From a virus (Duplodnaviria > Heunggongvirae > Uroviricota > Caudoviricetes), in the IMG/VR virus record IMGVR_UViG_2778261201_000003, positions 1 to 11,715 of that record: 11,715 nucleotides of DNA; one strand, written 5' to 3'. The position numbers and the translations under genes were made by a program. Every line of letters begins with the position of its first letter. Positions within the stretch are counted from its first letter, which is position 1. Below are positions 1,065 through 11,339 of this stretch, piece by piece. Under the pieces are notes generated by a model, which saw only the letters and a program-made list of their open reading frames with translations, was not told where the DNA came from and searched no databases.

Positions 1065-1187
1065 TCTACATTTGAAAATGCACGGTAATTCTGAAATGCA
1101 AAAAATCAACCAAACCAGCGCAATGCCTGAAAAAACTGACGTTCACTGGAGTGGTCGGTTTAGCGTTGCACCAATGCTCGATAGGAT
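1065..1187 (+). repeat. attL-side copy of the dusA 5' region (native chromosomal version)
   Basis: About 81% identical over ~110 bp to 10302-10411 (21 mismatches by hand alignment); identical blocks include ATGCCTGAAAAAACTG and ATGCTCGA; similarity stops after ~1187. Confidence 0.65.
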
Positions 1188-1200
1188 GTACCGTTTTTGA
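1078..1200 (+). pseudogene. dusA: Displaced 5' fragment of native dusA (40 codons then TGA)
   Basis: Translates to MHGNSEMQKINQTSAMPEKTDVHWSGRFSVAPMLD then diverges (RMYRF*); parallels the N-terminus of the intact dusA at 10302. Confidence 0.6.
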
Positions 1201-1325
1201 AAAACAAGTAGTTATACACTTTGTGGGAGCCTATTGGGAACCCGGTGTTTTCATTTCAAGGTGTAATCCATGCCGGGCATCAGAATGAGATATAATGAGA
1301 TTTTTAGTGTTCCGCTTGAGAGTCT

Positions 1326-1862
1326 ATGATGCTTACCCTAGACGAGATAGGTCAATCTGTACGTAACAATATCCAGTTGATTATTGATCATGTCGGCTTA
1401 CCTCTTGCTGTTGGTCCGCTCAGTGATGATGATTACAAGATTCTGTGTGGTGGCTATGGTGAGCTTGAATGGGACTATGCGTTAAGCACCTATGGCAACT
1501 CCAGAGAAAAGTATGAGTTCTGCATAAAACTTGTTCAGCAAGGTCGGGTTCAGGGAATACCATCAGGAGCAGCAATTTGTGTTTATGGGGTTGAAGAAAA
1601 CATCTTTCGTATCCATATGATCGAAAGGTTTTCTAGAGAAGATGAATCTCACCCATTGAAAGGGCGCATGGTTTTACTCACTCTTATGAGTGCTTTTATA
1701 TTTTGTAAAGCTGTTGAATGTAAAGTTGTCCACATTGTAGAGCCAGTACCAGAACTGGTGCAGTATTACGAGTCTTTTGGTTTCCGCATGGAACAGTGCG
1801 GTTATGTGATGTCTGCAGTCATTGATGAGCTGCAGGATATCTTTCTTAAATTTGCTCAGTAG
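1326..1862 (+). CDS. Hypothetical cargo protein, possibly a GNAT-fold acetyltransferase
   Basis: 178-aa ORF; C-terminal segment KVVHIVEPVPELVQYYESFGF resembles the GNAT beta-strand/helix/YxxxGF pattern; no canonical Q/RxxGxG/A motif seen, so function is tentative. Confidence 0.5.
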   Translation: MMLTLDEIGQSVRNNIQLIIDHVGLPLAVGPLSDDDYKILCGGYGELEWDYALSTYGNSREKYEFCIKLVQQGRVQGIPSGAAICVYGVEENIFRIHMIERFSREDESHPLKGRMVLLTLMSAFIFCKAVECKVVHIVEPVPELVQYYESFGFRMEQCGYVMSAVIDELQDIFLKFAQ

Positions 1863-2058
1863 GTATAGACGAGAAGGGTCTACAAATTGTAGGATACCCG
1901 TCCAGATTACCTTAAAGGTACATCTATGGCAGTCGTTTTGTGCTTAAACTACTAAGAAACGATGTCACCAATCGACATGATCGATTGGCATAAGTTAGCG
2001 AAACAAGCTAGCTTTAAAGAGAGGGTTAGAGGCGCCTTTACTGTCTCGGGAGTTTTCT

Positions 2059-2232
2059 ATGAAAGATCAAAAAGCAACCAAGCCACAGGTTAAGTTCGAC
2101 ACAATGAAAGCATTCGCAGGTATGGGTGCTGCTGTTGAAGTTCTGATGAAGGCTGCTCCTAATGCGTTCACTCACGCTACTGTCTCTGGTAAAGAGCAGC
2201 AGGGTAAGCTTCGTCGTCGCAAAGCAGCATGA
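2059..2232 (+). CDS. Small basic hypothetical protein (57 aa)
   Basis: ATG at 2059 preceded by GGGAG (2048-2052); ends TGA 2230-2232; followed by a strong intrinsic terminator; not in the ORF track because it is under 60 aa. Confidence 0.5.
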   Translation: MKDQKATKPQVKFDTMKAFAGMGAAVEVLMKAAPNAFTHATVSGKEQQGKLRRRKAA

Positions 2233-2252
2233 TCATAGCTGGTGCTTTTTGA

Positions 2253-2278
2253 AAACCCGCCTTTAGGCGGGTTTTTTC
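2253..2278. terminator. Bidirectional Rho-independent terminator
   Basis: AAACCCGCC (2253-2261), loop TTTA, GGCGGGTTT (2266-2274), then T-run; A-run upstream gives a U-tract on the minus strand too. Ends the plus small ORF and the minus-strand operon. Confidence 0.75.
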
Positions 2279-2279
2279 T

Positions 2280-2561
2280 TTAGTGATGTTCTTTGCCCTT
2301 CTGTTTGCTTGTTCTGACCTGTTCCCACTCGATACGTCCTTCTTCTCGTCTTTTGTCTATGTATTCCGCAAGATCCTGAATATTGATGCAACGTTTTGCT
2401 TTTTGTGATGTGCCGATGCGATATGTTGGAACGGGCAACTTACAAGCGTTTGCTTTTGCTTCTGCCGTGGCTGGACTCATGCCAAAGTACTTTTGGCTAA
2501 CTGCTGAGAGTTCAATGTTAGGGGTATTGAATTCAGCCATCAGTAAAAACAAGGTGTTCAT
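2280..2561 (-). CDS. PrtN/AlpA-like small DNA-binding protein (possible regulator or excision factor)
   Basis: Start chosen at ATG 2561 (MNTLFLLMAEF...) with GGAG 7 nt upstream; the MNTLFLL N-terminus resembles PrtN-family proteins as I recall them. Confidence 0.55.
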   Translation of the reverse strand: MNTLFLLMAEFNTPNIELSAVSQKYFGMSPATAEAKANACKLPVPTYRIGTSQKAKRCINIQDLAEYIDKRREEGRIEWEQVRTSKQKGKEHH

Positions 2562-2597
2562 AATTTTCTCCATCAAAACCGGCTGCACCCGGGAAAA

Positions 2598-3170
2598 TCA
2601 TAATTCTGTGCTGGTGGCAGGAATTAATTTCTGCCAGATAGCGGAAACATATTTTGCCTGATGACGAGCATCAGCCAGGGCGTTGTGCCGTTCGCCATCG
2701 AAAGGCATGTCCATTTTTGGGTCGAATCCGATGGAACGCCCAAGCGTAACGATCGTGCGCGCATCGTGATCATTCCAGTACGCCCATGGGCAGATTTGTC
2801 CTGCTCGCTCATAAGCTCCGCGTAAAATTACGTTGTCGAAGTTGGCTCCGTTACCCCAGACTTTTAAATATTTCGTATTGTCTGCGTGCCGATTAATGAA
2901 ATGGCTCAGTTCAGAGAGTGCATCGCTGATCGACAAAGTATCATCAATACAGATTGCAGCTCGTGCTTCAGGGCTTTGTTTCAACCACCACAGGATGGTG
3001 TCGCCGTCAGGTGTGGCCCCTTGCTCCATAGCACTGTCCAAGCTGACAGCCGTATAGAATTCTTGTCCGATGTCTCCGGTTTCTGGGGTGAAGAACACTG
3101 CGCCAATAGAAACGATCGGCGCATCCTTATTTTTCCCCATCGTCTCAAGGTCGATCATTAAGTTGTTCAT
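2598..3170 (-). CDS. DEDDh-type 3'-5' exonuclease (DnaQ-like fold)
   Basis: Motifs MIDLETMG (Exo I), WGNGANFD (Exo II) and HNALADA (Exo III); start ATG at 3170 overlaps the upstream stop (ATGA) with GGAGG upstream. Confidence 0.8.
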   Translation of the reverse strand: MNNLMIDLETMGKNKDAPIVSIGAVFFTPETGDIGQEFYTAVSLDSAMEQGATPDGDTILWWLKQSPEARAAICIDDTLSISDALSELSHFINRHADNTKYLKVWGNGANFDNVILRGAYERAGQICPWAYWNDHDARTIVTLGRSIGFDPKMDMPFDGERHNALADARHQAKYVSAIWQKLIPATSTEL

Positions 3171-3451
3171 CACTTTACCTCCTGCGGCGGTTCTTGTATT
3201 GGCATCGGCTGAGCTATATATAGCGGCTGAACATACCAGCCCTTTGATAACCAACTGTCAGCAACGTTTTTACTTCTGGTTATTGCCGGAATACCTAAGC
3301 CATTGTCTGAATGCAGCCATGCCACCGGATCCTCTTCCAGCGATGCCAGAGCAATTTCATAAGCACGGCGCTCAACATTGTCTCGCACGTCCATGCTGCT
3401 GATTCGTTCTTTGATTTCTTTAATCAGTTCTTTATCGGTAAATGTGGTCAT
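3170..3451 (-). CDS. Hypothetical phage protein (93 aa)
   Basis: ORF translationally coupled on both sides (TAATG overlap at 3451, ATGA at 3170); GGAG upstream. Confidence 0.6.
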   Translation of the reverse strand: MTTFTDKELIKEIKERISSMDVRDNVERRAYEIALASLEEDPVAWLHSDNGLGIPAITRSKNVADSWLSKGWYVQPLYIAQPMPIQEPPQEVK

Positions 3452-3813
3452 TATGCTCCAGCCTCCGGTGCTTTTGGCATTACAGCCCAGTGAGTGATAT
3501 TGACGTTTTCAAGGTCCCCGACCTGAAATGTCCACTGCCATTCTCCGGTTTCTTTTTGCCCCCATGTATACCAGAGAGAACGCCAGCCAATCAGCCAGCC
3601 TTCTCCATTAGCATCAAATAACAGAATACTTTCGTTCGCTGGCGGCAGTTCAGCTGACACTGGTATTACTTTGTTTTCCAGTGCTGCACATTTAGCTTCA
3701 AGCGCATCAAATTTACGCACCAGGTACTCAGCATTTGTTTCGTTCACTTTCAGATCTCGCGGTACACATTTCCCGCGAAGAAACCCTTCCATTTCGAAAA
3801 CATTCATGCGCAT
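3451..3813 (-). CDS. DUF551-like phage protein
   Basis: 120-aa ORF with Trp-rich C-terminal region (DANGEGWLIGW...W...W) typical of DUF551 proteins in lambdoid early regions; overlaps the upstream gene end by 10 nt. Confidence 0.6.
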   Translation of the reverse strand: MRMNVFEMEGFLRGKCVPRDLKVNETNAEYLVRKFDALEAKCAALENKVIPVSAELPPANESILLFDANGEGWLIGWRSLWYTWGQKETGEWQWTFQVGDLENVNITHWAVMPKAPEAGA

Positions 3814-4340
3814 TTGCGTAACTCCGATAACTCGTTAAAACGTTCCATAAACATCCCATAGGCATGGCCTGGCGACAGTGGAATAACTTTGAACATCTCT
3901 GTTGCCGGGATACCTTCCAGTACAGGCCAGAAAGAGCCATCATCAAGCCCGAGATCGCGGCGTTCGGTTGCCAGCATGATGAGATCGGCATATTTCACGG
4001 GCGTACTCATAACCGGGGGTAACCCGTATTTCTCACGGATTACGGCGTCTATTTTTTCTTCCATCCGTTTATAGTCAGGAAGAAGGCGTTTCAGTGGTGC
4101 GGGAATGTCCTGGCAATACGCTTCTGTTGCATCATGCATTAACGCTTCAAAAGCAAATTCGTGCGGTACCAGCTGGCTGCAAAGCACCGCATGTTGGGCG
4201 ACGCTGTAGAAGTGTGAAAGATGTCCTGCAAAGCGACAGATATTTGAAAGGGAAACCGCGATATCGTTAATAACGATGTCATCTTTATTTATCCTGTCAT
4301 AATAAAAATGCTTCCCGGAAAAAGTTTTAATAAATGACAT
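3804..4340 (-). CDS. HD-domain phosphohydrolase, YfdR-like (5'-deoxynucleotidase family)
   Basis: Start at ATG 4340 (MSFIKTFSGK...) with GGAG 8 nt upstream, giving 178 aa; H...HD metal-binding pattern (AGHLSH, MHDATEAY); resembles E. coli CPS-53 YfdR as recalled. Confidence 0.75.
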   Translation of the reverse strand: MSFIKTFSGKHFYYDRINKDDIVINDIAVSLSNICRFAGHLSHFYSVAQHAVLCSQLVPHEFAFEALMHDATEAYCQDIPAPLKRLLPDYKRMEEKIDAVIREKYGLPPVMSTPVKYADLIMLATERRDLGLDDGSFWPVLEGIPATEMFKVIPLSPGHAYGMFMERFNELSELRKCA

Positions 4341-4429
4341 TTTGTTCTCCACGTATATGCGCTGCACCGCGCTGAATTTTGATTGCAGCAATCCAGCCCA
4401 TTTGACATGGGATGATTGCTGCAATTTTT

Positions 4430-5347
4430 TTAAGTTGTTGGATTTTGGCTTTTATCTTCTTTGTAAGAAAGAAGGTCACACATCAAATTAACTACCTTGC
4501 TGAATTGGAAAAGGTCAGTGCCAGTCTGATGACGCCACTGGAATGCTTTATCATCTTCATCATTAAATGTCTGAGATTGAGTATTGATGCGCGAAAAATG
4601 GAAATTTTCGGTAAGAATGAAGGTCACACCGCAACCGGATAACTCCATTTTATCAGCAGTGAAACTACTACTAAGGCTATCGGCCAGTTCGCTTTGAATT
4701 GACTCATGCTCAGCTGAGTAGCGAATAATTTCCTTTTGATCTGCGTAGCGTGATAGCTGAATATAATTCCCGACAGTGAATCCTTCAAATGCATTGGCTG
4801 CACCATTGATGTAGTTCTTCAGGCGTGTAGTCAGTCCATTCTTGATATCACTGATGTTGATTGTTTCTGTTTTCACTGAACCGACAACCTTAATCAGCAT
4901 TGCGCATACCATACCGGCTATTATTTTATTGGTTGTGTTGATTACCAATAATTTCTCATCAGTGCTGTACAATGCAAGAATCAGCGTAGACTTAACAAAT
5001 GCCTGTTTGCATAGATCTACTCGTACGTTATCAATAATGGCCAGTCGTTCGGCACGCTTTAATTTATTCCCGGACATATTTTCGATTGTTTGGATTCGAG
5101 AATTAGCTTCTTTCATGACGACATGTCGGGGAATTATTTTCTGATCATGACGGATTACCATTGCGTACCCACCAGATATCGGAGTTACCAGTTCACCAGT
5201 GACAGGATTCTCTACAAAAGAGGACCGTGAAAATTCTGTTTCCCCGATTTCAGAATAAGGGAGTTCGAGAAGATGCCCTTCAATAGCCTGTATACTAGGT
5301 AATGTTGCTCGGTACACAATTGCGTTACGAAATTTTGGTAATTTCAT
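4430..5347 (-). CDS. RdgC-like recombination-associated protein
   Basis: Start at ATG 5347 (MKLPKFRNAIVYR...) with GAGGAAAA RBS, 305 aa; N-terminal FRN..VYR and KIIPRHVV segments parallel E. coli RdgC. The open frame extending to 5497 is GC-rich non-coding read-through. Confidence 0.7.
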   Translation of the reverse strand: MKLPKFRNAIVYRATLPSIQAIEGHLLELPYSEIGETEFSRSSFVENPVTGELVTPISGGYAMVIRHDQKIIPRHVVMKEANSRIQTIENMSGNKLKRAERLAIIDNVRVDLCKQAFVKSTLILALYSTDEKLLVINTTNKIIAGMVCAMLIKVVGSVKTETINISDIKNGLTTRLKNYINGAANAFEGFTVGNYIQLSRYADQKEIIRYSAEHESIQSELADSLSSSFTADKMELSGCGVTFILTENFHFSRINTQSQTFNDEDDKAFQWRHQTGTDLFQFSKVVNLMCDLLSYKEDKSQNPTT

Positions 5348-5397
5348 TCTATTTTCCTCTGCACAAGATATTAGTTTCTCCACAAAACAGAGAAGAA

Positions 5398-5745
5398 CAC
5401 CTGCGGTGGCAGCCGCCCGGATGGATTGGGTTATGAGCCCGTCGTCCGGTGATGCTCTTCTCTGTTTTGTAAAAAGAGCGGTACCAGCCGGAAGCAAGTG
5501 TACAAACTGGTACCGCGAGGACTACACACAGCATAAAGTTGTGGTGCCGGGTGCCTCCCGGTGCCTGGCGAAGGTTGCACACCAGGCGGGTGGGTATCCA
5601 CAGAAGGTCGACTGTCAGCCTCAACCTTAACCCGCGTGCGCTGAGCCGCATTCACCACAACGCTAAGGATTCTCTCTGGTTGAAAATACTTAGCTGTTAT
5701 GTGCCTGTCTTTTCACCACTTCAGGCTCGGTGGTATCCTTTTAAG
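5398..5745. other. GC-rich, hairpin-dense non-coding element (candidate structured RNA or regulatory region)
   Basis: Four overlapping ORFs in different frames, all Arg/Pro/Gly-rich and not protein-like; perfect 10-bp inverted repeat GCGGTACCAG/CTGGTACCGC (5478-5516); further stems CCGGG/CCCGG (about 5546-5560), GCCTGG/CCAGGC (about 5564-5588) and GTGG/CCAC (about 5592-5603). Confidence 0.3.
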
Positions 5746-5770
5746 TCCGTATACATAAAAGGAAAATCAA

Positions 5771-6016
5771 ATGACTTTTGATGAAAAAGAACTTGATAAT
5801 GCAATTAATAAAATCATCGTAACGTCGCTCTTTTCCTGTCTCAGCGACACTCAGCAGAAACAGTTCTACGAATCGGCTTTCAACATGATCGAGCGTTGTT
5901 GTTTCTGCGATGCCGACGAGCTACCTGAAAAAATCAGGAAACAGTTGGCTGATGCTCTTCGAGTGCGACTTTCTGACCAATTTTCTGAAATGTACTCTCC
6001 GAATTTGGACAAATAG
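5771..6016 (+). CDS. Hypothetical small protein, reverse-oriented moron-like gene
   Basis: 81-aa ORF with AAGGAAA RBS; upstream candidate promoter (TTCACC, 16-nt spacer, extended -10 TGgTATCCT at 5712-5739); 12-bp bulged hairpin at 6026-6051 after the stop. Confidence 0.4.
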   Translation: MTFDEKELDNAINKIIVTSLFSCLSDTQQKQFYESAFNMIERCCFCDADELPEKIRKQLADALRVRLSDQFSEMYSPNLDK

Positions 6017-6209
6017 AAAAAGGCCATTTCCATTCAGGGTCTGATGGAAATACTTCAGCCTGTTCCAAAGCACGGCGTAAAGAGAATACAACTCCAGCCA
6101 TAATCTGATGTTTCCCATTGGTCCAGCTATCGCCGCTCTGATCTACAGGAGCGGCTATGTCGTATGACCAAACGACTTCACCACTATTGTTTAAAATCTG
6201 GACTTTCAT
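5934..6209 (-). CDS. Hypothetical protein (91 aa)
   Basis: ATG 6209 with GGAGG 12 nt upstream, just after the zinc-ribbon gene stop; its 3' end overlaps the plus ORF 5771-6016 by 83 bp, so one of the two may be spurious or shorter. Confidence 0.4.
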   Translation of the reverse strand: MKVQILNNSGEVVWSYDIAAPVDQSGDSWTNGKHQIMAGVVFSLRRALEQAEVFPSDPEWKWPFSICPNSESTFQKIGQKVALEEHQPTVS

Positions 6210-6217
6210 TTTGTTCT

Positions 6218-6421
6218 TTAACCTCCAGATTTCCGCGCATCTAAAGGCGCATTCTCATTTGGTGTGAACTGAATAGTTGTGCTGATATTGATTAATGCCC
6301 CGACACACAAGACTACGCACTCAGAGCAGATAGCAACTTCATCTTTTCCGCCTTTGGCGATGATTTTTTTTGCCTGCAGCTCGTTTGCGCCACAAAACGA
6401 GCATGTGAAATAACGGTTCAT
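6218..6421 (-). CDS. ClpX-type zinc-ribbon small protein
   Basis: YFTCSFCG...AICSECVVLC gives a CxxC...CxxC pattern closely resembling the ClpX N-terminal zinc-binding domain; start chosen at ATG 6421 (alternative ATG 6439 has no RBS). Confidence 0.6.
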   Translation of the reverse strand: MNRYFTCSFCGANELQAKKIIAKGGKDEVAICSECVVLCVGALINISTTIQFTPNENAPLDARKSGG

Positions 6422-6519
6422 TTGCGCTCTCTTACACATAGTATTTAACGAATCATCCGGTCATTCATACGCCACCGGCGGCTACTTCGTGGGCGTCCTG
6501 CCTGTTCGTTGTTTCGCTT

Positions 6520-6555
6520 GGGTACATTATGTATCTCAAAGGTACATTGTCAAGT
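6520..6555 (-). promoter_or_regulatory. pL-like early-left promoter with candidate repressor operators
   Basis: Minus strand -35 TTGACA (6553-6548), 16-17 nt spacer, -10 CATAAT/ATAATG (about 6531-6525); GGTACATTATGTATC (6521-6535) overlaps -10 and GGTACATTGTCAAGT (6541-6555) overlaps -35. Confidence 0.5.
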
Positions 6556-6580
6556 ATAAAAAAACCTGCCGAAGCAGGTT
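6556..6580 (-). terminator. Rho-independent terminator downstream of the cI-like gene
   Basis: On the minus strand: AACCUGC, UUCG tetraloop, GCAGGUU, then a run of 7 U. Confidence 0.65.
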
Positions 6581-6592
6581 CATAAACATTGA

Positions 6593-7267
6593 TTAGGCTT
6601 TGATTTTGTATCTTCTTGGTTTTCCTGAGAAAATCACTGTACCAATTATAGAGCAATTACCGTTGATCTTAATGTAAGGCTCAGGCCAGTTTGGGTTTAA
6701 CGCTTTGAGATAACGCTGTGTCCCATCTTCTATCAACCTTTTGAAGGTGGTTTCACCTGTATCGTGCATCAATGCAATAACGTCGTCACCGTGGCAGGCA
6801 GGGACTTCAGGATCTACAAAAATCATGTCTCCCGGGCGGTACTCATCAATCATTGAATCACCAATCACCCGCAAGATATAAGTCATTTCGCCACAGGGTA
6901 CAGGGCAGGGATAAGTTTCTGCTGTGCTCAAATCAACCTCAGAATAGCCAACTTCTTTCCATGCTCCGGCCTGTACCCATGATATGACAGGGACTAACGT
7001 TATTTGTTTGTTAGTGATTGAAACATCAGGTTTTTTTGTGATGTTCGTGGTCTGGTGTTCTTGATCAAGCCATCCGACAGGCAGGTCGAAACATTTTTCG
7101 ATGTGCCGTGCCATGCTGTCACCGATATTTTTAGTAGCACCATCTCCCATAAACCTGCTGGTCTGGGTTGGCTCGCGATCAATCATGGTGGCAAAGGAAG
7201 AATTCCCGCCAACACCATCTCTCAGTTTTCTGGCGTTAGACCGCCGGATGTCATGGACTGTTTTCAT
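6593..7267 (-). CDS. CI-like repressor with N-terminal HTH and C-terminal S24 (LexA-like) autopeptidase domain
   Basis: 224-aa ORF; candidate Ala-Gly cleavage site (VQAGAW); Ser in VIGDSM and Lys in TFKRL form the Ser/Lys dyad; divergent from the Cro-like gene. Confidence 0.85.
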   Translation of the reverse strand: MKTVHDIRRSNARKLRDGVGGNSSFATMIDREPTQTSRFMGDGATKNIGDSMARHIEKCFDLPVGWLDQEHQTTNITKKPDVSITNKQITLVPVISWVQAGAWKEVGYSEVDLSTAETYPCPVPCGEMTYILRVIGDSMIDEYRPGDMIFVDPEVPACHGDDVIALMHDTGETTFKRLIEDGTQRYLKALNPNWPEPYIKINGNCSIIGTVIFSGKPRRYKIKA

Positions 7268-7357
7268 AAAGAAATTAAAACCTTTGTACCGATAAGGTAC
7301 AAGTATCTTGAAGGTTCATGCTAATCATGTAATATGTATATCGGAGGTACATATTGT
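7268..7357. promoter_or_regulatory. Divergent cI/cro switch region with palindromic operator-like sites
   Basis: Perfect palindrome TTGTACC-gataa-GGTACAA (7284-7302); GGTACATATTGTATG (7346-7360) nearly identical to the pL-region site; candidate pR (TTGAAG 7308-7313, TAATAT 7330-7335); candidate leaderless pRM-like promoter on the minus strand (-35 TTGTAC, -10 TTTAAT ending 7 nt before the cI ATG). Confidence 0.45.
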
Positions 7358-7558
7358 ATGAAAGCGTATTGGGACTCTTTAACCAAAGAACAGCAGGGCG
7401 AGTTGGCCGGAAAAGTTGGCTCAACACCAGGCTACTTACGGCTGGTTTTCAATGGTTATAAAAAAGCCAGTTTTGTGCTGGCTAAAAAACTTGAGCAATG
7501 CACGTCAGGTGCAATTACGAAATCTGACTTAAGACCGGATATCTATCCGAAAGATTAA
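7358..7558 (+). CDS. Cro-like small HTH regulator (YdaS-like)
   Basis: 66-aa ORF from ATG 7358 with GGAGG at 7343-7347; the upstream ATG at 7334 lacks an RBS; motif GAITKSDLRPDIYP resembles Cro/YdaS-type proteins; divergent from the repressor. Confidence 0.7.
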   Translation: MKAYWDSLTKEQQGELAGKVGSTPGYLRLVFNGYKKASFVLAKKLEQCTSGAITKSDLRPDIYPKD

Positions 7559-7589
7559 CAGAACACCTTCAATTTTTAACCACAGAACG

Positions 7590-8102
7590 ATGAGGCTAAC
7601 CGTGGGTAAGCATCACTGGAAAGTAGAAAAACAGCCTGAGTGGTACGTGAAAGCTGTCAGAAAAACTATCGCGGCGTTGCCGGGGGGTTACGCTGAAGCT
7701 GCTGAGTGGCTGGATGTAACAGAGAACGCTTTATTCAACCGCCTTCGTGCAGATGGCGATCAGATTTTCCCGCTGGGATGGGCAATGATTTTACAGCGCG
7801 CGGCTGGCACTCACTACATTGCGGATGCTGTCGCACAGTCTGCTGGTGGGGTGTTTGTATCGCTTCCTGAAATTGAGGAAGTAGAGAACGCCGATATAAA
7901 CCAGCGCCTGCTGGAAGTCATCGAACAGATCGGGAGTTACTCAAAGCAGATTCGTTCGGCAATCGAAGATGGGGTATCTGATTTTCCCCTGTCCCCACAT
8001 CCCGTTTCGCTGCTTCTCCCAAACCAACCTTTCAAATATTTTTCTGAATCAGGTGATATTTCGCCTCTTCTCCTGTTTTTACAACAGGAGAAGCACTCAT
8101 GA
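7590..8102 (+). CDS. CII-like phage regulatory protein (putative, 186 CII/CP76-like)
   Basis: 170-aa ORF directly after the cro-like gene; size and position match CII of 186-type phages; real start may be GTG 7602 (GAGG RBS); stop overlaps the invertase start (ATGA). Confidence 0.5.
   Translation: MRLTVGKHHWKVEKQPEWYVKAVRKTIAALPGGYAEAAEWLDVTENALFNRLRADGDQIFPLGWAMILQRAAGTHYIADAVAQSAGGVFVSLPEIEEVENADINQRLLEVIEQIGSYSKQIRSAIEDGVSDFPLSPHPVSLLLPNQPFKYFSESGDISPLLLFLQQEKHS
8067..8093. promoter_or_regulatory. 27-bp perfect palindrome covering the invertase RBS
   Basis: CTTCTCCTGTT-tttac-AACAGGAGAAG (11-bp arms); the right arm contains the invertase Shine-Dalgarno AGGAG. Confidence 0.4.
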
Positions 8103-8662
8103 TTTACGGGTATGTTCGTGTATCAACAAATCATCAGGATACAGAGTTGCAACGTCTTGCACTTGAGTCAGCTGGCTGTGAGCGAATTTATGAAGAATAT
8201 GCCAGTGGCAGAACAGCTAATCGCCCTGTGTTAAAGGAATTAATTTCGGTGATGAAAAGTGGAGATGAGTTGATTGTCTGGAAGCTAGATCGGATAGGGA
8301 GAAATGTGCTACATGCGCTATTGATGTTTCAAAATCTGCACGAAAAAGGCGTTAATTTTCGGAGTATTACAGATGGTGTAGACCTGAAAACAGCAAGTGG
8401 TCGCTATAATTTCCGTAATATTCTTTCTGCTGCGCAGTATGAATCTGATTTGAATAGCGAGCGAACTTTAGCTGGTTTGGCTATTGCCAGATCCAAAGGC
8501 CGGATTGGTGGGCGTAGACCGAAGTTTAGCGACGAGCAGTGGCAACAGATGGGAGCGCTCATAGCGGCAGGGAAATCACGGCGTTATGTTGCACGTATCT
8601 ATAACGTTGGGCTATCAACCCTATATAAACGATTTCCTGTTACTGGCATTCAAACGAAATAA
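8099..8662 (+). CDS. Serine recombinase, Hin/Gin/Pin-family DNA invertase
   Basis: 187 aa; N-terminal MIYGYVRVSTNHQD with catalytic Ser; resolvase fold motifs (LDRIGR); C-terminal HTH (GKSRRYVARIYNVGLSTLYKR). Confidence 0.85.
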   Translation: MIYGYVRVSTNHQDTELQRLALESAGCERIYEEYASGRTANRPVLKELISVMKSGDELIVWKLDRIGRNVLHALLMFQNLHEKGVNFRSITDGVDLKTASGRYNFRNILSAAQYESDLNSERTLAGLAIARSKGRIGGRRPKFSDEQWQQMGALIAAGKSRRYVARIYNVGLSTLYKRFPVTGIQTK

Positions 8663-8702
8663 TTTAAAAGCAATTTAAAGAGTTATTTGTCTAATGTTGG
8701 AA

Positions 8703-8738
8703 GCCGCAGCCACGTCGTATGCAAGAACGTGCTGCGGC
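8703..8738. other. GC-rich hairpin in the convergent intergenic region (possible bidirectional terminator or binding site)
   Basis: GCCGCAGC(C)ACG pairs with CGTGCTGCGGC across a 13-nt loop; no clear U-tract on either strand. Confidence 0.35.
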
Positions 8739-8805
8739 TGGCTGGCGAACTTTCGATAGTGCGAGTATTGAATGATTTCCAGCCGTTACCGATTTTACGT
8801 GTTAA

Positions 8806-9054
8806 TTAGTGAACAAACCACTCGTCAGCAGATTCCCAGGTATCTTTCAGAGTCTCCTGAACAAAAGTTTTTGCAGAATCCTTATCTGCGGTGCGTGTAA
8901 CAGAAAGGCCATCGTTGCTGGTGGCTTTTACGATCACCTCTACATCGTCATAACGTTTACTGATGCGTCGGGTTAATTCTTCCTTTAACGCATCCACAGC
9001 ACCGGTTGGCATTTTAGTCATTTTTTCTTTGGCTATGCAGATTTCAATACGCAT
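8806..9054 (-). CDS. DinI-family DNA-damage-inducible protein
   Basis: 82 aa, [11 protein letters not shown]...[11 protein letters not shown] parallels E. coli DinI (MRIEVTIAK...ETWESADDWFV); two LexA boxes immediately upstream. Confidence 0.85.
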
Positions 9055-9067
9055 AAAAGTCCCTCTA

Positions 9068-9115
9068 TACTGTGTTTGTATACAGTATTATTTTTAACTG
9101 TATGGATAAACAGTG
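9068..9115 (-). promoter_or_regulatory. Two tandem LexA (SOS) boxes over the DinI-like promoter
   Basis: TACTGTGTTTGTATACAGTA (9068-9087) and AACTGTATGGATAAACAGTG (9096-9115), both CTGT-N8-ACAG; minus-strand -35 TTGACA (9119-9114) and a -10 TAAAAA-like hexamer overlap them. Confidence 0.75.
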
Positions 9116-10213
9116 TCAAGAGGTCTTATTTCTGCTCCTTTGGAGCTCTTCAAAACGATTATGTAAAGATTTCGGATACAGTTCGGTATATACCTGCCAT
9201 AGCACGTTTAATGAACGATGCCCTGTGACCTGGGCGACTTCCTCAATACTAAAACCAGCCTCAAATAAGCGACTTGCCCCTTCTCTACGCAAATCATGGT
9301 ATCGCAGATCCTTAATACCTAATTTGCTTCTTACCCTCTGAAATCCCGCAGTAACAGAAGTGCTGTTATATGGAAAAATGAATTCCGATTTTTTGGGCTG
9401 TCGTTGGACGATATCCCAGGCTTCCCCAAGCAAGGCTACTTTCATGTGGTTGCCTTCCTTTTTGCGTGGATCTTTCCTGTCTCTTACGAGTATAGATTTT
9501 TGTTCCTGGTCGAGATCTTCCCATCGTAACCGGCATACTTCTCCGATCCGCATACAGGACCACACAGAAAATTTGAGGATATCAACGAACGGAATTTTTG
9601 AGCATTTATGAGTAGATCGTTGTTGAAGGCCTTCAATGAGCATGTCCAGTTCATCAGATGCTGGTCTACGATTACGACGGTTTGATTTACCAATCAAACC
9701 AAGTTTAAGTAGATATGGGCGAGCGCTTTTCGCCGGGTTTGATGTGTAATTAATTCCGTATACAGGTTTGGCCGCATCCAGAACACTGCCAAGATAACTA
9801 ACATCGTGGCTGACTGTTGCTGGACCTGCACCAGCGTTGTTTCTTAGCCTGCAATGTTCAATTACGTCATTTTCTGTCAGTTCAGATAGTTTGATCGCGG
9901 AGATGTCACTATCCATAAGCAGTTCCAGCACATATCTTTTAGTACGGCCTGCTTTACCTCCGGCATTTGGGTCATTTAAATATTTGTGTAGTAAGTCACG
10001 GACTGTAAGTCCGTCAACTGCATTTGATGATGGAATGCCATATAGATCTAATTCCATCACTTTCTGTGTTCCCCATGTTTTGGCATGAGCATGTTTAGGG
10101 AATGTTTTGCTTTCCCTGTAAGTGATAACACCTTTTTCTTTGATAATCACATTACAGCGATAGCGTGGTGTGCCATCGGATTTTAGTCGTTTCTCTATGT
10201 TATAGTACGCCAT
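9116..10213 (-). CDS. int: Tyrosine recombinase, dusA-associated integrase
   Basis: 365 aa; C-terminal catalytic region with R...HDLR...GH...Y pattern (RYHDLRREGA, VTGHRSLNVLWQVYTELY); divergent from and adjacent to the dusA 5' end. Confidence 0.9.
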   Translation of the reverse strand: MAYYNIEKRLKSDGTPRYRCNVIIKEKGVITYRESKTFPKHAHAKTWGTQKVMELDLYGIPSSNAVDGLTVRDLLHKYLNDPNAGGKAGRTKRYVLELLMDSDISAIKLSELTENDVIEHCRLRNNAGAGPATVSHDVSYLGSVLDAAKPVYGINYTSNPAKSARPYLLKLGLIGKSNRRNRRPASDELDMLIEGLQQRSTHKCSKIPFVDILKFSVWSCMRIGEVCRLRWEDLDQEQKSILVRDRKDPRKKEGNHMKVALLGEAWDIVQRQPKKSEFIFPYNSTSVTAGFQRVRSKLGIKDLRYHDLRREGASRLFEAGFSIEEVAQVTGHRSLNVLWQVYTELYPKSLHNRFEELQRSRNKTS

Positions 10214-10232
10214 TACACGACCTCGTTATTTC

Positions 10233-10268
10233 GGGTTCCCATAAAACGTGGGAACCTGTGCGGGAACC
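10233..10268. promoter_or_regulatory. GGGAACC repeat cluster between int and dusA (candidate arm-type or promoter sites)
   Basis: GGGTTCCC (10233-10240), GGGAACC (10249-10255), GGGAACC (10262-10268); a further GGGAACC at 1236-1242 just inside attL. Confidence 0.35.
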
Positions 10269-10288
10269 TAACGCGAGAAAAATAGCCT

Positions 10289-10411
10289 GAAATGTTCAAA
10301 AATGCACGATAATCATGAAACACAAAAAATTAATCAAACCAGCGTGATGCCTGAAAAAACTGGTGTTTACTGGAATTCTCGGTTTAGCATTGCTCCTATG
10401 CTCGACTGGAC
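10289..10411 (+). repeat. attR-side copy of the dusA 5' region (island-supplied 5' end fused to native dusA)
   Basis: About 81% identical to 1065-1187; downstream of ~10406 the sequence continues as intact dusA. Confidence 0.65.
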
Positions 10412-11339
10412 GGACAGACATTGCCGCTATTTCTTGCGTCTGCTTTCCCGCAATACGTTGCTGTATACCGAAATGGTGACCACAGGGGCGATTATTCACG
10501 GTAAAGGTGATTACCTGGCGTACAGTGAAGAAGAACATCCGGTAGCGTTGCAACTCGGCGGTAGCGATCCGGCGGCGCTGGCACAGTGTGCGAAGCTGGC
10601 AGAAGCGCGTGGATATGATGAGATCAACCTGAATGTCGGCTGCCCGTCTGACCGGGTGCAGAACGGCATGTTTGGTGCGTGTCTGATGGGTAATGCGCAG
10701 CTGGTTGCCGACTGTGTGAAAGCGATGCGCGATGTGGTGTCGATTCCAGTGACGGTGAAAACGCGTATTGGCATCGATGACCAGGACAGCTATGAATTTC
10801 TCTGCGATTTCATCAACACTGTTTCCGGCAAAGGCGAGTGTGAGATGTTTATCATCCACGCACGTAAAGCCTGGCTTTCGGGGTTAAGCCCGAAAGAAAA
10901 CCGTGAAATCCCGCCGCTCGATTATCCGCGTGTGTATCAACTGAAGCGTGACTTTCCGCATCTGACAATGTCGATTAACGGTGGTATCAAGTCGCTGGAA
11001 GAGGCCAAAGCACACCTGCAACATATGGATGGCGTGATGGTCGGGCGCGAGGCGTATCAGAATCCGGGTATTCTGGCGGCGGTAGACCGGGAGATCTTTG
11101 GTTCCTCGGATACCGATGCCGATCCGGTGGCGGTAGTGCGCGCCATGTATCCGTACATTGAGCGTGAACTCAGCCAGGGGACGTATCTCGGCCATATTAC
11201 CCGGCATATGCTGGGTTTGTTCCAGGGTATTCCTGGCGCGCGGCAGTGGCGGCGTTATTTAAGTGAAAATGCCCATAAAGCGGGTGCTGACATTAACGTG
11301 CTGGAACACGCGCTCAAACTGGTGGCGGATAAGCGTTAA
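10302..11339 (+). CDS. dusA: tRNA-dihydrouridine synthase A
   Basis: 345-aa ORF recognised as E. coli DusA throughout; the first ~35 codons ([32 protein letters not shown]) differ from the displaced copy at 1078 and are island-derived. Confidence 0.95.

Follow-up and report, generated by a model that had tools for sequence, protein, structure and literature searches.

Borders and gene content of the dusA island

The analysed stretch of 11,715 nucleotides, called the window below, carries a 9,224-bp E. coli element lying between a displaced 5′ remnant of dusA (1075-1191) and a rebuilt dusA gene that begins at 10299 (Table 1). The flanks, yjbM (DUF2713) on one side and dusA-pspG on the other, are 100% identical to those of several E. 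coli strains. At each border the dusA 5′ end is imperfectly repeated, in direct orientation, over 117 nt; the two copies are 81% identical and spaced 9,224 bp apart, and in the alignment of the attL copy with the attR side, similarity stops after ...ATGCTCGA at 1181. A partial dusA is annotated at the place equivalent to attL in H10407 and in strain 81. On the other side dusA is kept whole by the element-borne 5′ end and encodes a 345-aa DusA with a full-length Dus domain (Pfam). The integrase gene lies directly upstream of this 5′ end, in divergent orientation. The island is thus organised as a dusA element, by its repeats as well as by its integrase.

Table 1. Features of the window (positions 5′ to 3′; a point marks features without strand).
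Feature	Position	Strand	Evidence or remark
attL: displaced native dusA 5′ end, promoter-proximal remnant, ORF 1072-1200, adjoins yjbM	1075-1191	+	direct repeat with 10299-10415
att-proximal moron, phrog_4350	1326-1862	+	matches mEp460 gp23 at 178/178 positions, stop codon counted
small ORF, phrog_2741, rightward of moron	2059-2232		PHROG match
strong terminator, after moron and small ORF	2251-2276		terminator prediction
excisionase, PrtN family, last early-left operon gene	2280-2588	-	PF11112, 4e-23; phrog_1300 excisionase
early-left operon upstream of excisionase	2598-6439	-	Pfam and PHROG matches
3′-5′ exonuclease	2598-3170	-	Pfam/PHROG
operon protein without family	3170-3451	-	Pfam/PHROG search
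DUF551 protein	3451-3813	-	Pfam/PHROG
YfdR HD phosphatase	3804-4340	-	Pfam/PHROG
RdgC	4430-5347	-	Pfam/PHROG
STnc100-type sRNA	5469-5691		within leftward operon; Rfam RF02076, 49.1 bits (gathering score 47)
operon protein without family	5934-6209	-	Pfam/PHROG search
ClpX-zinc-finger protein	6218-6439	-	Pfam/PHROG
putative pL-like promoter	6526-6553	-	motif TTGACA-16-CATAAT
putative operator-like motif, overlapping pL-like promoter	6532-6547	.	repeat family
terminator, pL-like promoter downstream of it	6562-6581	.	prediction
cI repressor, S24 autopeptidase type, e14 immunity	6593-7267	-	PF00717, 1.5e-26
putative cI-cro divergent control region	7268-7357	.	palindrome TTGTACC-GATAA-GGTACAA at 7284-7302; operator-like motif at 7304-7319
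cro, YdaS/YmfT type HTH	7358-7558 (alternative start 7334)	+	65/66 identical to e14 YmfT
truncated ymfL (CII-like), codons 1-129	7590-7976	+	truncated profile matches
deletion junction, 4-bp microhomology GGTA	7973-7976	.	window compared with the two parental sequences
37-bp fragment of invertible tail-fibre segment, start of alternative fibre C-terminal exon	7977-8013	-	contiguous with invertase region in H10407, CT02, APEC37, others
single hix/gix-type crossover site, TTCTCCCAAACC-AA-CCTTTCAAATAT	8014-8039	+	comparison with full-length relatives
Pin/Gin/Hin-family serine invertase, resolvase and HTH_7	8099-8662	+	PF00239, PF02796
DinI-like gene	8806-9054	-	PF06183; identical to H10407 copy
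dusA-specific tyrosine integrase, divergent from dusA	9116-10213	-	PF00589
attR: phage-supplied replacement dusA 5′ end, in frame with host gene	10299-10415	+	direct repeat, alignment
dusA, intact	10302-11339	+	Dus domain (Pfam)

Besides one moron, the open reading frames of the island comprise cI/cro, a CII-like gene, an early-left operon whose last gene is the excisionase, and genes for DinI, a serine invertase and an integrase. In Pfam, PHROGs, NCBIfam and PADLOC, none of them matched a family of replication, lysis, terminase, capsid or tail proteins. These profile searches bear out the preliminary description, which had found regulatory and recombination genes only, without structural, lysis or replication genes, apart from the 37-bp remnant of a tail-fibre gene at 7977-8013. 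Capsid-remodelling and small-terminase functions, for which it had suggested screening the hypothetical proteins, gave no profile match either. The sole PADLOC result for the unknown ORFs was one weak DEDDh match of the exonuclease, and the moron had no match in Pfam, NCBIfam, PADLOC or the PDB.

The leftward operon extends from 6439 down to 2280, with two genes of no assigned function listed between the ClpX-zinc-finger protein and RdgC and one between DUF551 and the exonuclease. Its excisionase is identical to that of mEp460 at 100 of 103 aligned positions (stop codon included), and over 3201-6211 the sequence shares 98.9% identity with the GPEC620-622 prophage. Upstream of the operon, cI and cro form a divergent immunity module of the lambdoid kind, whose repressor is an S24 autopeptidase. 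The repressor (223 of 224 residues identical to e14 YmfK) contains an Ala-Gly pair (VQAGAW) as well as the GDSM and FKRL motifs, while the matches of cro to PF15943 and HTH_3 both fell under the Pfam cut-off. The operator-like motif occurs in the pL-like promoter, between cI and cro, and once more at 1908-1923, the three copies making up one repeat family with a putative operator function. On the right, two LexA-box-like sites matching CTGT-N8-ACAG (9070-9085 and 9098-9113) precede dinI. The integrase, found in 729 of 5,426 E. coli genomes, agrees with its H10407 copy at 365 of 366 aligned positions and the invertase at 187 of 188 (stop codons included). The latter is 56% identical to PinE of e14 and carries the C-terminal HTH_7 domain of the Gin/Pin/Hin recombinases. 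All retained genes are intact and 97-100% identical to counterparts in working or complete phages.

The ymfL junction and the full-length relatives

The gene called CII in the preliminary description does belong to the CII/YmfL family (7590-8102, + strand), but it is truncated and chimeric, matching only positions 11-131 of 203 in PHROG 101 and 2-112 of 143 in the NCBIfam YmfL profile. Its homology to mEp460, GPEC620-622 and e14 stops at 7975/7976, and homology of the right arm to H10407 begins at 7973. Codon 129 of ymfL is therefore joined through the tetranucleotide GGTA to the 37-bp tail-fibre fragment, so that both interrupted genes are incomplete. From there the chimeric frame runs on into foreign sequence as far as a stop codon that overlaps the ATG of the invertase gene.

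The same two arms are found in the same order in full-length relatives, where ymfL and the invertase are separated by ~28.5 kb that encode replication and lysis functions, Q, terminase, head, tail and tail fibres. Among these relatives are phages mEp460 and SKA5, the dusA prophage of ETEC H10407 (~39.6 kb) and, in strain CX04, an excised circle of 37.7 kb; full-length dusA prophages are also present in the GPEC strains (GPEC620-622) and, according to spot checks of genomes bearing the integrase, in RM9088 and O157:H7, and SKA5, cdtI and SfV were among the phages matching the island. Compared with the H10407 prophage, SKA5, mEp460, SfV and cdtI, the island has arms 95-99% identical, the same att site and the same order, but lacks the ~28.5 kb that they carry. 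The early-left and immunity regions are mosaic, with RdgC in the island versus YfdQ/YfdP in the full-length relatives, and a different cI allele. The HNH-terminase region, cos-bearing in the relatives, falls within the missing part. Collinearity with complete phages, loss of the essential modules and truncated genes at the breakpoint are all hallmarks of a defective lambdoid prophage. We conclude from these comparisons that the island is very probably a "grounded" lambdoid prophage, produced from a phage of ~38 kb by one internal deletion of ~28.5 kb. The size of the deletion, taken against the 37,667-bp CX04 circle, is an estimate from relatives, because the exact parent is absent from the collections searched and no single match covers more than 72% of the island. 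Island plus deletion amount to ~37.7 kb, which matches SKA5 (37,572 bp) and SfV (37,074 bp).

The junction was found in none of the 5,426 complete E. coli genomes, and none of them contained at least 80% of the island. The chimeric YmfL protein had no exact match in the protein (gene) index, nor did the exact junction sequence in genome or metagenome contig collections. A junction present in no other record searched could come from contig mis-joining, by which a full-length prophage would have been collapsed during assembly. The parental sequences share just 4 bp at the joint, therefore offering an assembler no repeat to collapse across, and the finished genome of strain 81 contains a similarly short island; we regard an artefact as highly improbable.

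Strain 81 harbours a second, independent short element at dusA, with different breakpoints. It is devoid of cI and cro and its hix site is deleted entirely, its right breakpoint lying between the hix site and the invertase gene, whereas in the window this breakpoint lies 37 bp to the left of hix. Like the island, it retains int, xis and both att sites. Other candidates for short islands were set aside: in GPEC1352 and GPEC620-622 the arms are close together, but these are tandem full-length prophages, and another candidate is the excised 37.7-kb circle. Both independent short derivatives end at most ~120 bp upstream of the invertase gene, a coincidence that chance alone explains only moderately well.

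Origin and likely behaviour of the element

The preliminary description had hesitated between a decayed prophage and a satellite of an unfamiliar kind. Such a helper-dependent element would keep its induction and excision functions and leave replication and packaging to the helper. The small size of the island, its intact int, xis and cI, its two att sites and possible excision upon SOS induction are all compatible with this, as is the existence of a second short dusA element in strain 81. It nevertheless has no replication initiator, primase, terminase, capsid-redirecting gene or cos region, all its genes are common to complete phages at 97-100% identity, and its boundary cuts two genes at a 4-bp microhomology. 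Neither is there a conserved architecture, since the strain 81 island has other breakpoints and no cI or cro; a shared size and gene order among dusA islands, which had been proposed as a check, was found nowhere in the 5,426 genomes, and the arrangement is also unique among all contig collections searched. A satellite is thus very hard to credit: with full-length dusA prophages in related strains (H10407, RM9088, O157:H7, the GPEC strains and the CX04 circle), a situation that the preliminary description had itself listed as refuting evidence, the island is evidently an internal-deletion derivative. The unique junction and the different, independent derivative of strain 81 indicate sporadic decay rather than a conserved satellite family. 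Of the two earlier options the prophage remnant is the one that holds, although "decayed" overstates the age of the event: with all retained genes intact and 97-100% identical to those of working phages, the event was a single recent deletion.

The serine invertase, previously counted among the recombination genes, is indeed present. In the full-length relatives the same hix site has an inverted partner ~1.9 kb away, and the segment between the two is inverted in H10407 relative to GPEC620-622. The second, inverted site is absent from the window, where hix occurs in one copy only. With one of the two sites left, the invertase is therefore orphaned, without an invertible segment; it is the recombinase with which the parent phage switched its tail-fibre host range, and no recombination function of the island. 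In such remnants an invertase or a CII-like gene can be a leftover rather than a working part.

The right breakpoint is close to the invertase in both independent derivatives, as would be expected if this enzyme had itself made the deletion, by site-specific recombination between hix and a pseudo-site in ymfL. Yet the junction of the window is not at the central dinucleotide of hix, 37 bp of segment DNA remaining to the left of the site, the ymfL side (GATGGGGTA|GTGGAG) bears no resemblance to hix, and in strain 81 the hix site is wholly deleted. The position of the junction largely refutes this route, which we reject as very unlikely.

The preferred reading, a single microhomology-mediated deletion, leads to the following course. 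A phage of the SfV/SKA5/e14 type, ~38 kb long, whose head is HK97-like and whose contractile tail is Mu-like, used its dusA-specific integrase to enter this gene at the 5′ end and brought its own replacement for that end. One illegitimate recombination at GGTA then removed the ~28.5 kb from ymfL codon 129 to just inside the invertible tail-fibre segment. With this segment went cos, one of the two inversion sites and every gene for replication, antitermination, lysis, packaging, head and tail. The remnant would consist of int, both att sites, the orphan invertase, dinI with its LexA boxes, the pL operon with xis as its last gene, and an immunity module (cI/cro) of e14 specificity. Such a remnant is expected to repress superinfecting phages of e14 immunity. 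Upon SOS induction, autocleavage of cI would let pL and pR fire and a 9.2-kb circle be excised, which would either reintegrate or be lost, because it could not replicate, lyse the cell or be packaged. Both immunity and SOS-induced excision probably survive, given the near identity of cI to YmfK and the intactness of the retained genes. The island is a clean case of a prophage grounded by one microhomology-mediated deletion that probably spared its immunity and excision.

It is conceivable, albeit improbable, that short derivatives of dusA prophages arise repeatedly and are favoured beyond mere toleration. If so, their recurrence could reflect a break-prone hot spot created at the hix site by the serine invertase, or else selection for grounded remnants that retain SOS-triggered excision. 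Since the element supplies the dusA 5′ end, such excision would swap this end and the upstream, presumably promoter, region between phage-borne and native versions.

Comparison with known elements

The E. coli satellites (P4-like, PICI and cfPICI) resemble the island in being small, with an integrase, a repressor and a fixed integration site. Unlike them, it lacks a primase or replicase, genes for packaging or capsid size, a cos site and the architecture of a conserved family: searches of its ORFs in Pfam, PHROGs and NCBIfam gave no replication module (primase/helicase, or Rep with an origin), and Pfam and PHROGs no packaging-hijack function, be it a small terminase, a protein that sets capsid size or redirects capsids, a capsid gene or a helper cos/pac site. 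The island should be annotated as a defective lambdoid prophage of e14 immunity integrated at dusA rather than as a candidate satellite, a distinction that matters little past annotation.

Among elements with a dusA integrase, about half are prophages and the rest islands and phage remnants; remnants at dusA were already recorded there, grouped with genomic islands (46 of 94 elements; Farrugia et al. 2015, PMC4482086). The island shares with these elements the divergent integrase beside dusA, the imperfect dusA 5′ repeats and a prtN-family gene. Nothing essential differs, and it is a further remnant, whose junction is absent from the collections searched.

Of the known elements, e14, a defective lambdoid prophage inserted in icd of E. 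coli K-12, comes closest to the island. Brody et al. are said to have reported in 1985 that e14 excises on SOS induction. The two are of the same phage type, with the module order cI-cro-ymfL ... tail fibres-invertase and a Pin-family invertase; identity amounts to 223/224 for cI, 65/66 for cro and 87% over what is left of YmfL. Like the island, e14 integrates within a protein-coding gene and provides a replacement gene end (PMC6379469). Its integrase, excisionase and att site are unrelated, the icd 3′ end being used instead of the dusA 5′ end. According to the K-12 annotation, e14 has undergone several deletions and keeps fragments of terminase, portal and baseplate genes, the complete invertible fibre segment, lit and mcrA, whereas the island has one clean deletion and has kept a long early-left operon.

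Gene content and borders of the island

E. coli chromosomal DNA flanks the island: yjbM (DUF2713) precedes it and dusA-pspG follows, and several strains are 100% identical to the left flank. The insertion measures 9,224 bp, and at each border stands one copy of an imperfect direct repeat (117 nt) that corresponds to the dusA 5′ end. Its left copy is an ordinary dusA 5′ end beside yjbM, where relatives have an annotated partial dusA, while the right copy is diverged and fused in frame with the remaining dusA, giving a full-length 345-aa Dus protein. The same border architecture is known for elements carrying dusA-associated integrases (PMC4482086). When 10302-10415 is compared with 1078-1191, the phage-borne 5′ end changes several amino acids among the N-terminal ~35 of DusA (native, MHGNSEMQKINQTSAMPEKTDVHWSGRFSV...); the int-dusA intergenic DNA takes the place of the native dusA upstream region, presumably the promoter.

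Features of the island and its borders
Feature	Position	Strand or direction	Remark
dusA 5′-end direct repeat	1075-1191 and 10299-10415		copies 81% identical to each other
Moron	1326-1862	rightward
Leftward operon	6439 to 2280	leftward	last gene, PrtN-family excisionase
S24-type cI	6593-7267	(-)
cro	7358-7558	(+)
CII/YmfL-type gene	7590-8102	(+)
Serine invertase	8099-8662	(+)
DinI	8806-9054	(-)
Integrase	9116-10213	(-)

Gene content was checked with Pfam, PHROGs, NCBIfam and PADLOC scans. These confirmed the integrase, invertase, CI-type repressor, Cro, CII and early-left operon listed in the preliminary description. Its statement that replication, packaging, virion and lysis genes are missing was borne out by the same scans, as no ORF of the island resembled such proteins.

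The moron next to the att site encodes a 178-aa protein (phrog_4350) identical to mEp460 gp23, for which Pfam, NCBIfam, PADLOC and the PDB gave no match. The moron's slot is a variable cargo hot spot, since relatives carry Panacea-domain, CoiA or YafO-toxin genes there. Just downstream of it, an operator-like motif (1908-1923) is related to those of pL and pR. In the gap upstream of rdgC, a match to the STnc100 sRNA family of Rfam (5469-5691, minus strand, 49.1 bits for a gathering score of 47) overlaps a 25-nt inverted repeat (5382-5406/5446-5470), and between 5370 and 5630 conservation is 98-99% in mEp460, H10407 and strain 81.

Full-length relatives and the deletion junction

In mEp460, attP is located between int and the moron/xis arm, which means that a full dusA prophage runs from the moron arm at attL to int at attR. 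Its order is therefore attL, moron, xis, early-left operon, cI, cro, ymfL, replication, Q, lysis, terminase, head, tail, tail fibres, invertase, dinI, int, attR. Exactly this order is found in ETEC H10407 at the same chromosomal site, over about 39.6 kb. RM9088 and O157:H7 share this right end, next to which their tail-fibre genes lie, and the DNA used as integrase query (int and the 87 bp upstream of it) is 100% identical in RM9088; GPEC620-622 and GPEC1352 have full-length copies in tandem, and in CX04 an excised dusA prophage is represented by a circular record of 37,667 bp. The integrase itself was found in 729 of 5,426 complete E. coli genomes. The window thus holds both arms of a full-length dusA prophage, the middle being wholly absent.

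The CX04 circle (L007, NZ_CP081716.1) is labelled 'plasmid unnamed3', has a dusA fragment beside int at its attP junction, and has numerous annotated frameshifts, which have the appearance of long-read errors; the CX04 chromosome too carries the prophage arm (search match H158). The prophage of O157:H7 strain 7409 with the same integrase at dusA has three genes of DUF1076, the NleG effector-like family, between tail fibres and dinI (L009, 1033-3030).

Homology to ymfL of mEp460, GPEC620-622 and e14 stops at 7975/7976, and homology to the H10407 region upstream of the invertase extends from 7973 to the window end (98.4%). The parental sequences read ...GATGGGGTA/GTGGAG on the ymfL side and ...ATCCGGTA/TCTGAT on the tail-fibre side (slash, joint), and the window ...GATGGGGTATCTGAT, with a microhomology of 4 bp. 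As the parents share only these 4 bp, a joint created during assembly is unlikely. YmfL is truncated after residue 129 and aligns to positions 11-131 of 203 of PHROG 101 and 2-112 of 143 of NCBIfam YmfL. Measured against the CX04 circle, about 28.5 kb are missing; island plus deletion amount to about 37.7 kb, in agreement with SKA5 (37,572 bp) and SfV (37,074 bp).

Of the invertible tail-fibre segment, 37 bp are left (7977-8013), followed at 8014-8039 by the 26-bp site TTCTCCCAAACC-AA-CCTTTCAAATAT, which resembles the consensus of hix and gix sites. In full-length relatives this site is paired with an inverted partner about 1.9 kb away, and GPEC620-622 and H10407 have the intervening DNA in opposite orientations, hence a Gin/Pin/Hin-type host-range switch in these relatives. 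The window carries a single site, so its invertase is orphaned. That the invertase itself made the deletion is unlikely, since 37 bp separate the junction from the hix site and the ymfL side bears no resemblance to such a site. Beyond the junction, the chimeric ymfL ORF reads across the tail-fibre remnant and the hix site (7977-8102), and its stop shares bases with the invertase start codon (ATGA, 8099-8102), so that transcription of the orphan invertase may now start at pR, with translational coupling.

Retained genes and their probable functions

The genes that remain are intact and differ little from their counterparts in working phages: int (365/366 identical positions vs H10407), xis (100/103 vs mEp460), the moron (178/178 vs mEp460 gp23) and RdgC (306/306 vs GPEC620-622), stop codons included in these counts. 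CI is identical to e14 YmfK at 223 of 224 positions and Cro to YmfT at 65 of 66. An Ala-Gly and the Ser (GDSM) and Lys (FKRL) motifs, as an autopeptidase repressor should have, are present in CI. The region between cI and cro contains a palindrome and related operator-like motifs, and such motifs also cover a near-consensus leftward promoter (6553-6526). Two CTGT-N8-ACAG LexA-box-like sites (9070-9113), between int and dinI and upstream of the latter, suggest direct SOS control of the prophage DinI. Most likely, the island would confer immunity to phages of e14 specificity and, upon SOS derepression, would excise as a 9.2-kb circle, which should be incapable of replicating, lysing the cell or being packaged. 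e14 is reported to behave in this way (Brody et al. 1985, cited in PMC6379469).

Sporadic remnants, satellites and e14

Among the 5,426 complete genomes, not one contained the island at 80% coverage or more, or spanned its junction; the chimeric YmfL was not found in an exact-sequence gene index, nor the junction 32-mer in genome and metagenome contig collections. A ranked search gave one other short dusA element, of about 8.6 kb, in strain 81 (L005, NZ_CP088131.1, 19896-28510). Its ends are those of the island (moron-xis on the left, invertase-dinI-int on the right). Its breakpoints differ (equivalent to 5630 and 8091 of the window), cI, cro, ymfL and the hix site are all missing from it, and the mosaic of its early-left region is not the same, so that it represents an independent deletion. 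The right breakpoints are about 115 bp apart, both deletions terminating no more than about 120 bp before the start of the invertase gene. The left breakpoint of strain 81 falls inside the STnc100 match region.

Sporadic, non-identical remnants are what decay is expected to leave; a satellite family would have conserved size, order and boundaries. The preliminary description had proposed comparing related dusA islands for conserved size and gene order: no such conservation was found in the 5,426 genomes, and strain 81 differs. Of its two options, the decayed prophage is upheld by the full-length dusA relatives and the truncated genes at the junction, and the unfamiliar satellite falls for lack of replication, packaging and conserved architecture. 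We conclude that the island is an ordinary defective prophage of recent origin, belonging to a well-known kind. Phage remnants at dusA are already listed in a 2015 survey of dusA integrases (PMC4482086). Phage satellites have their own replication module, packaging or capsid functions or cos, and a conserved architecture, whereas the island has none of these; membership fails on all three tested defining features. e14, like the island, derives from the same phage type and shares its module order and immunity, but is multiply deleted and has a different integrase and att site.
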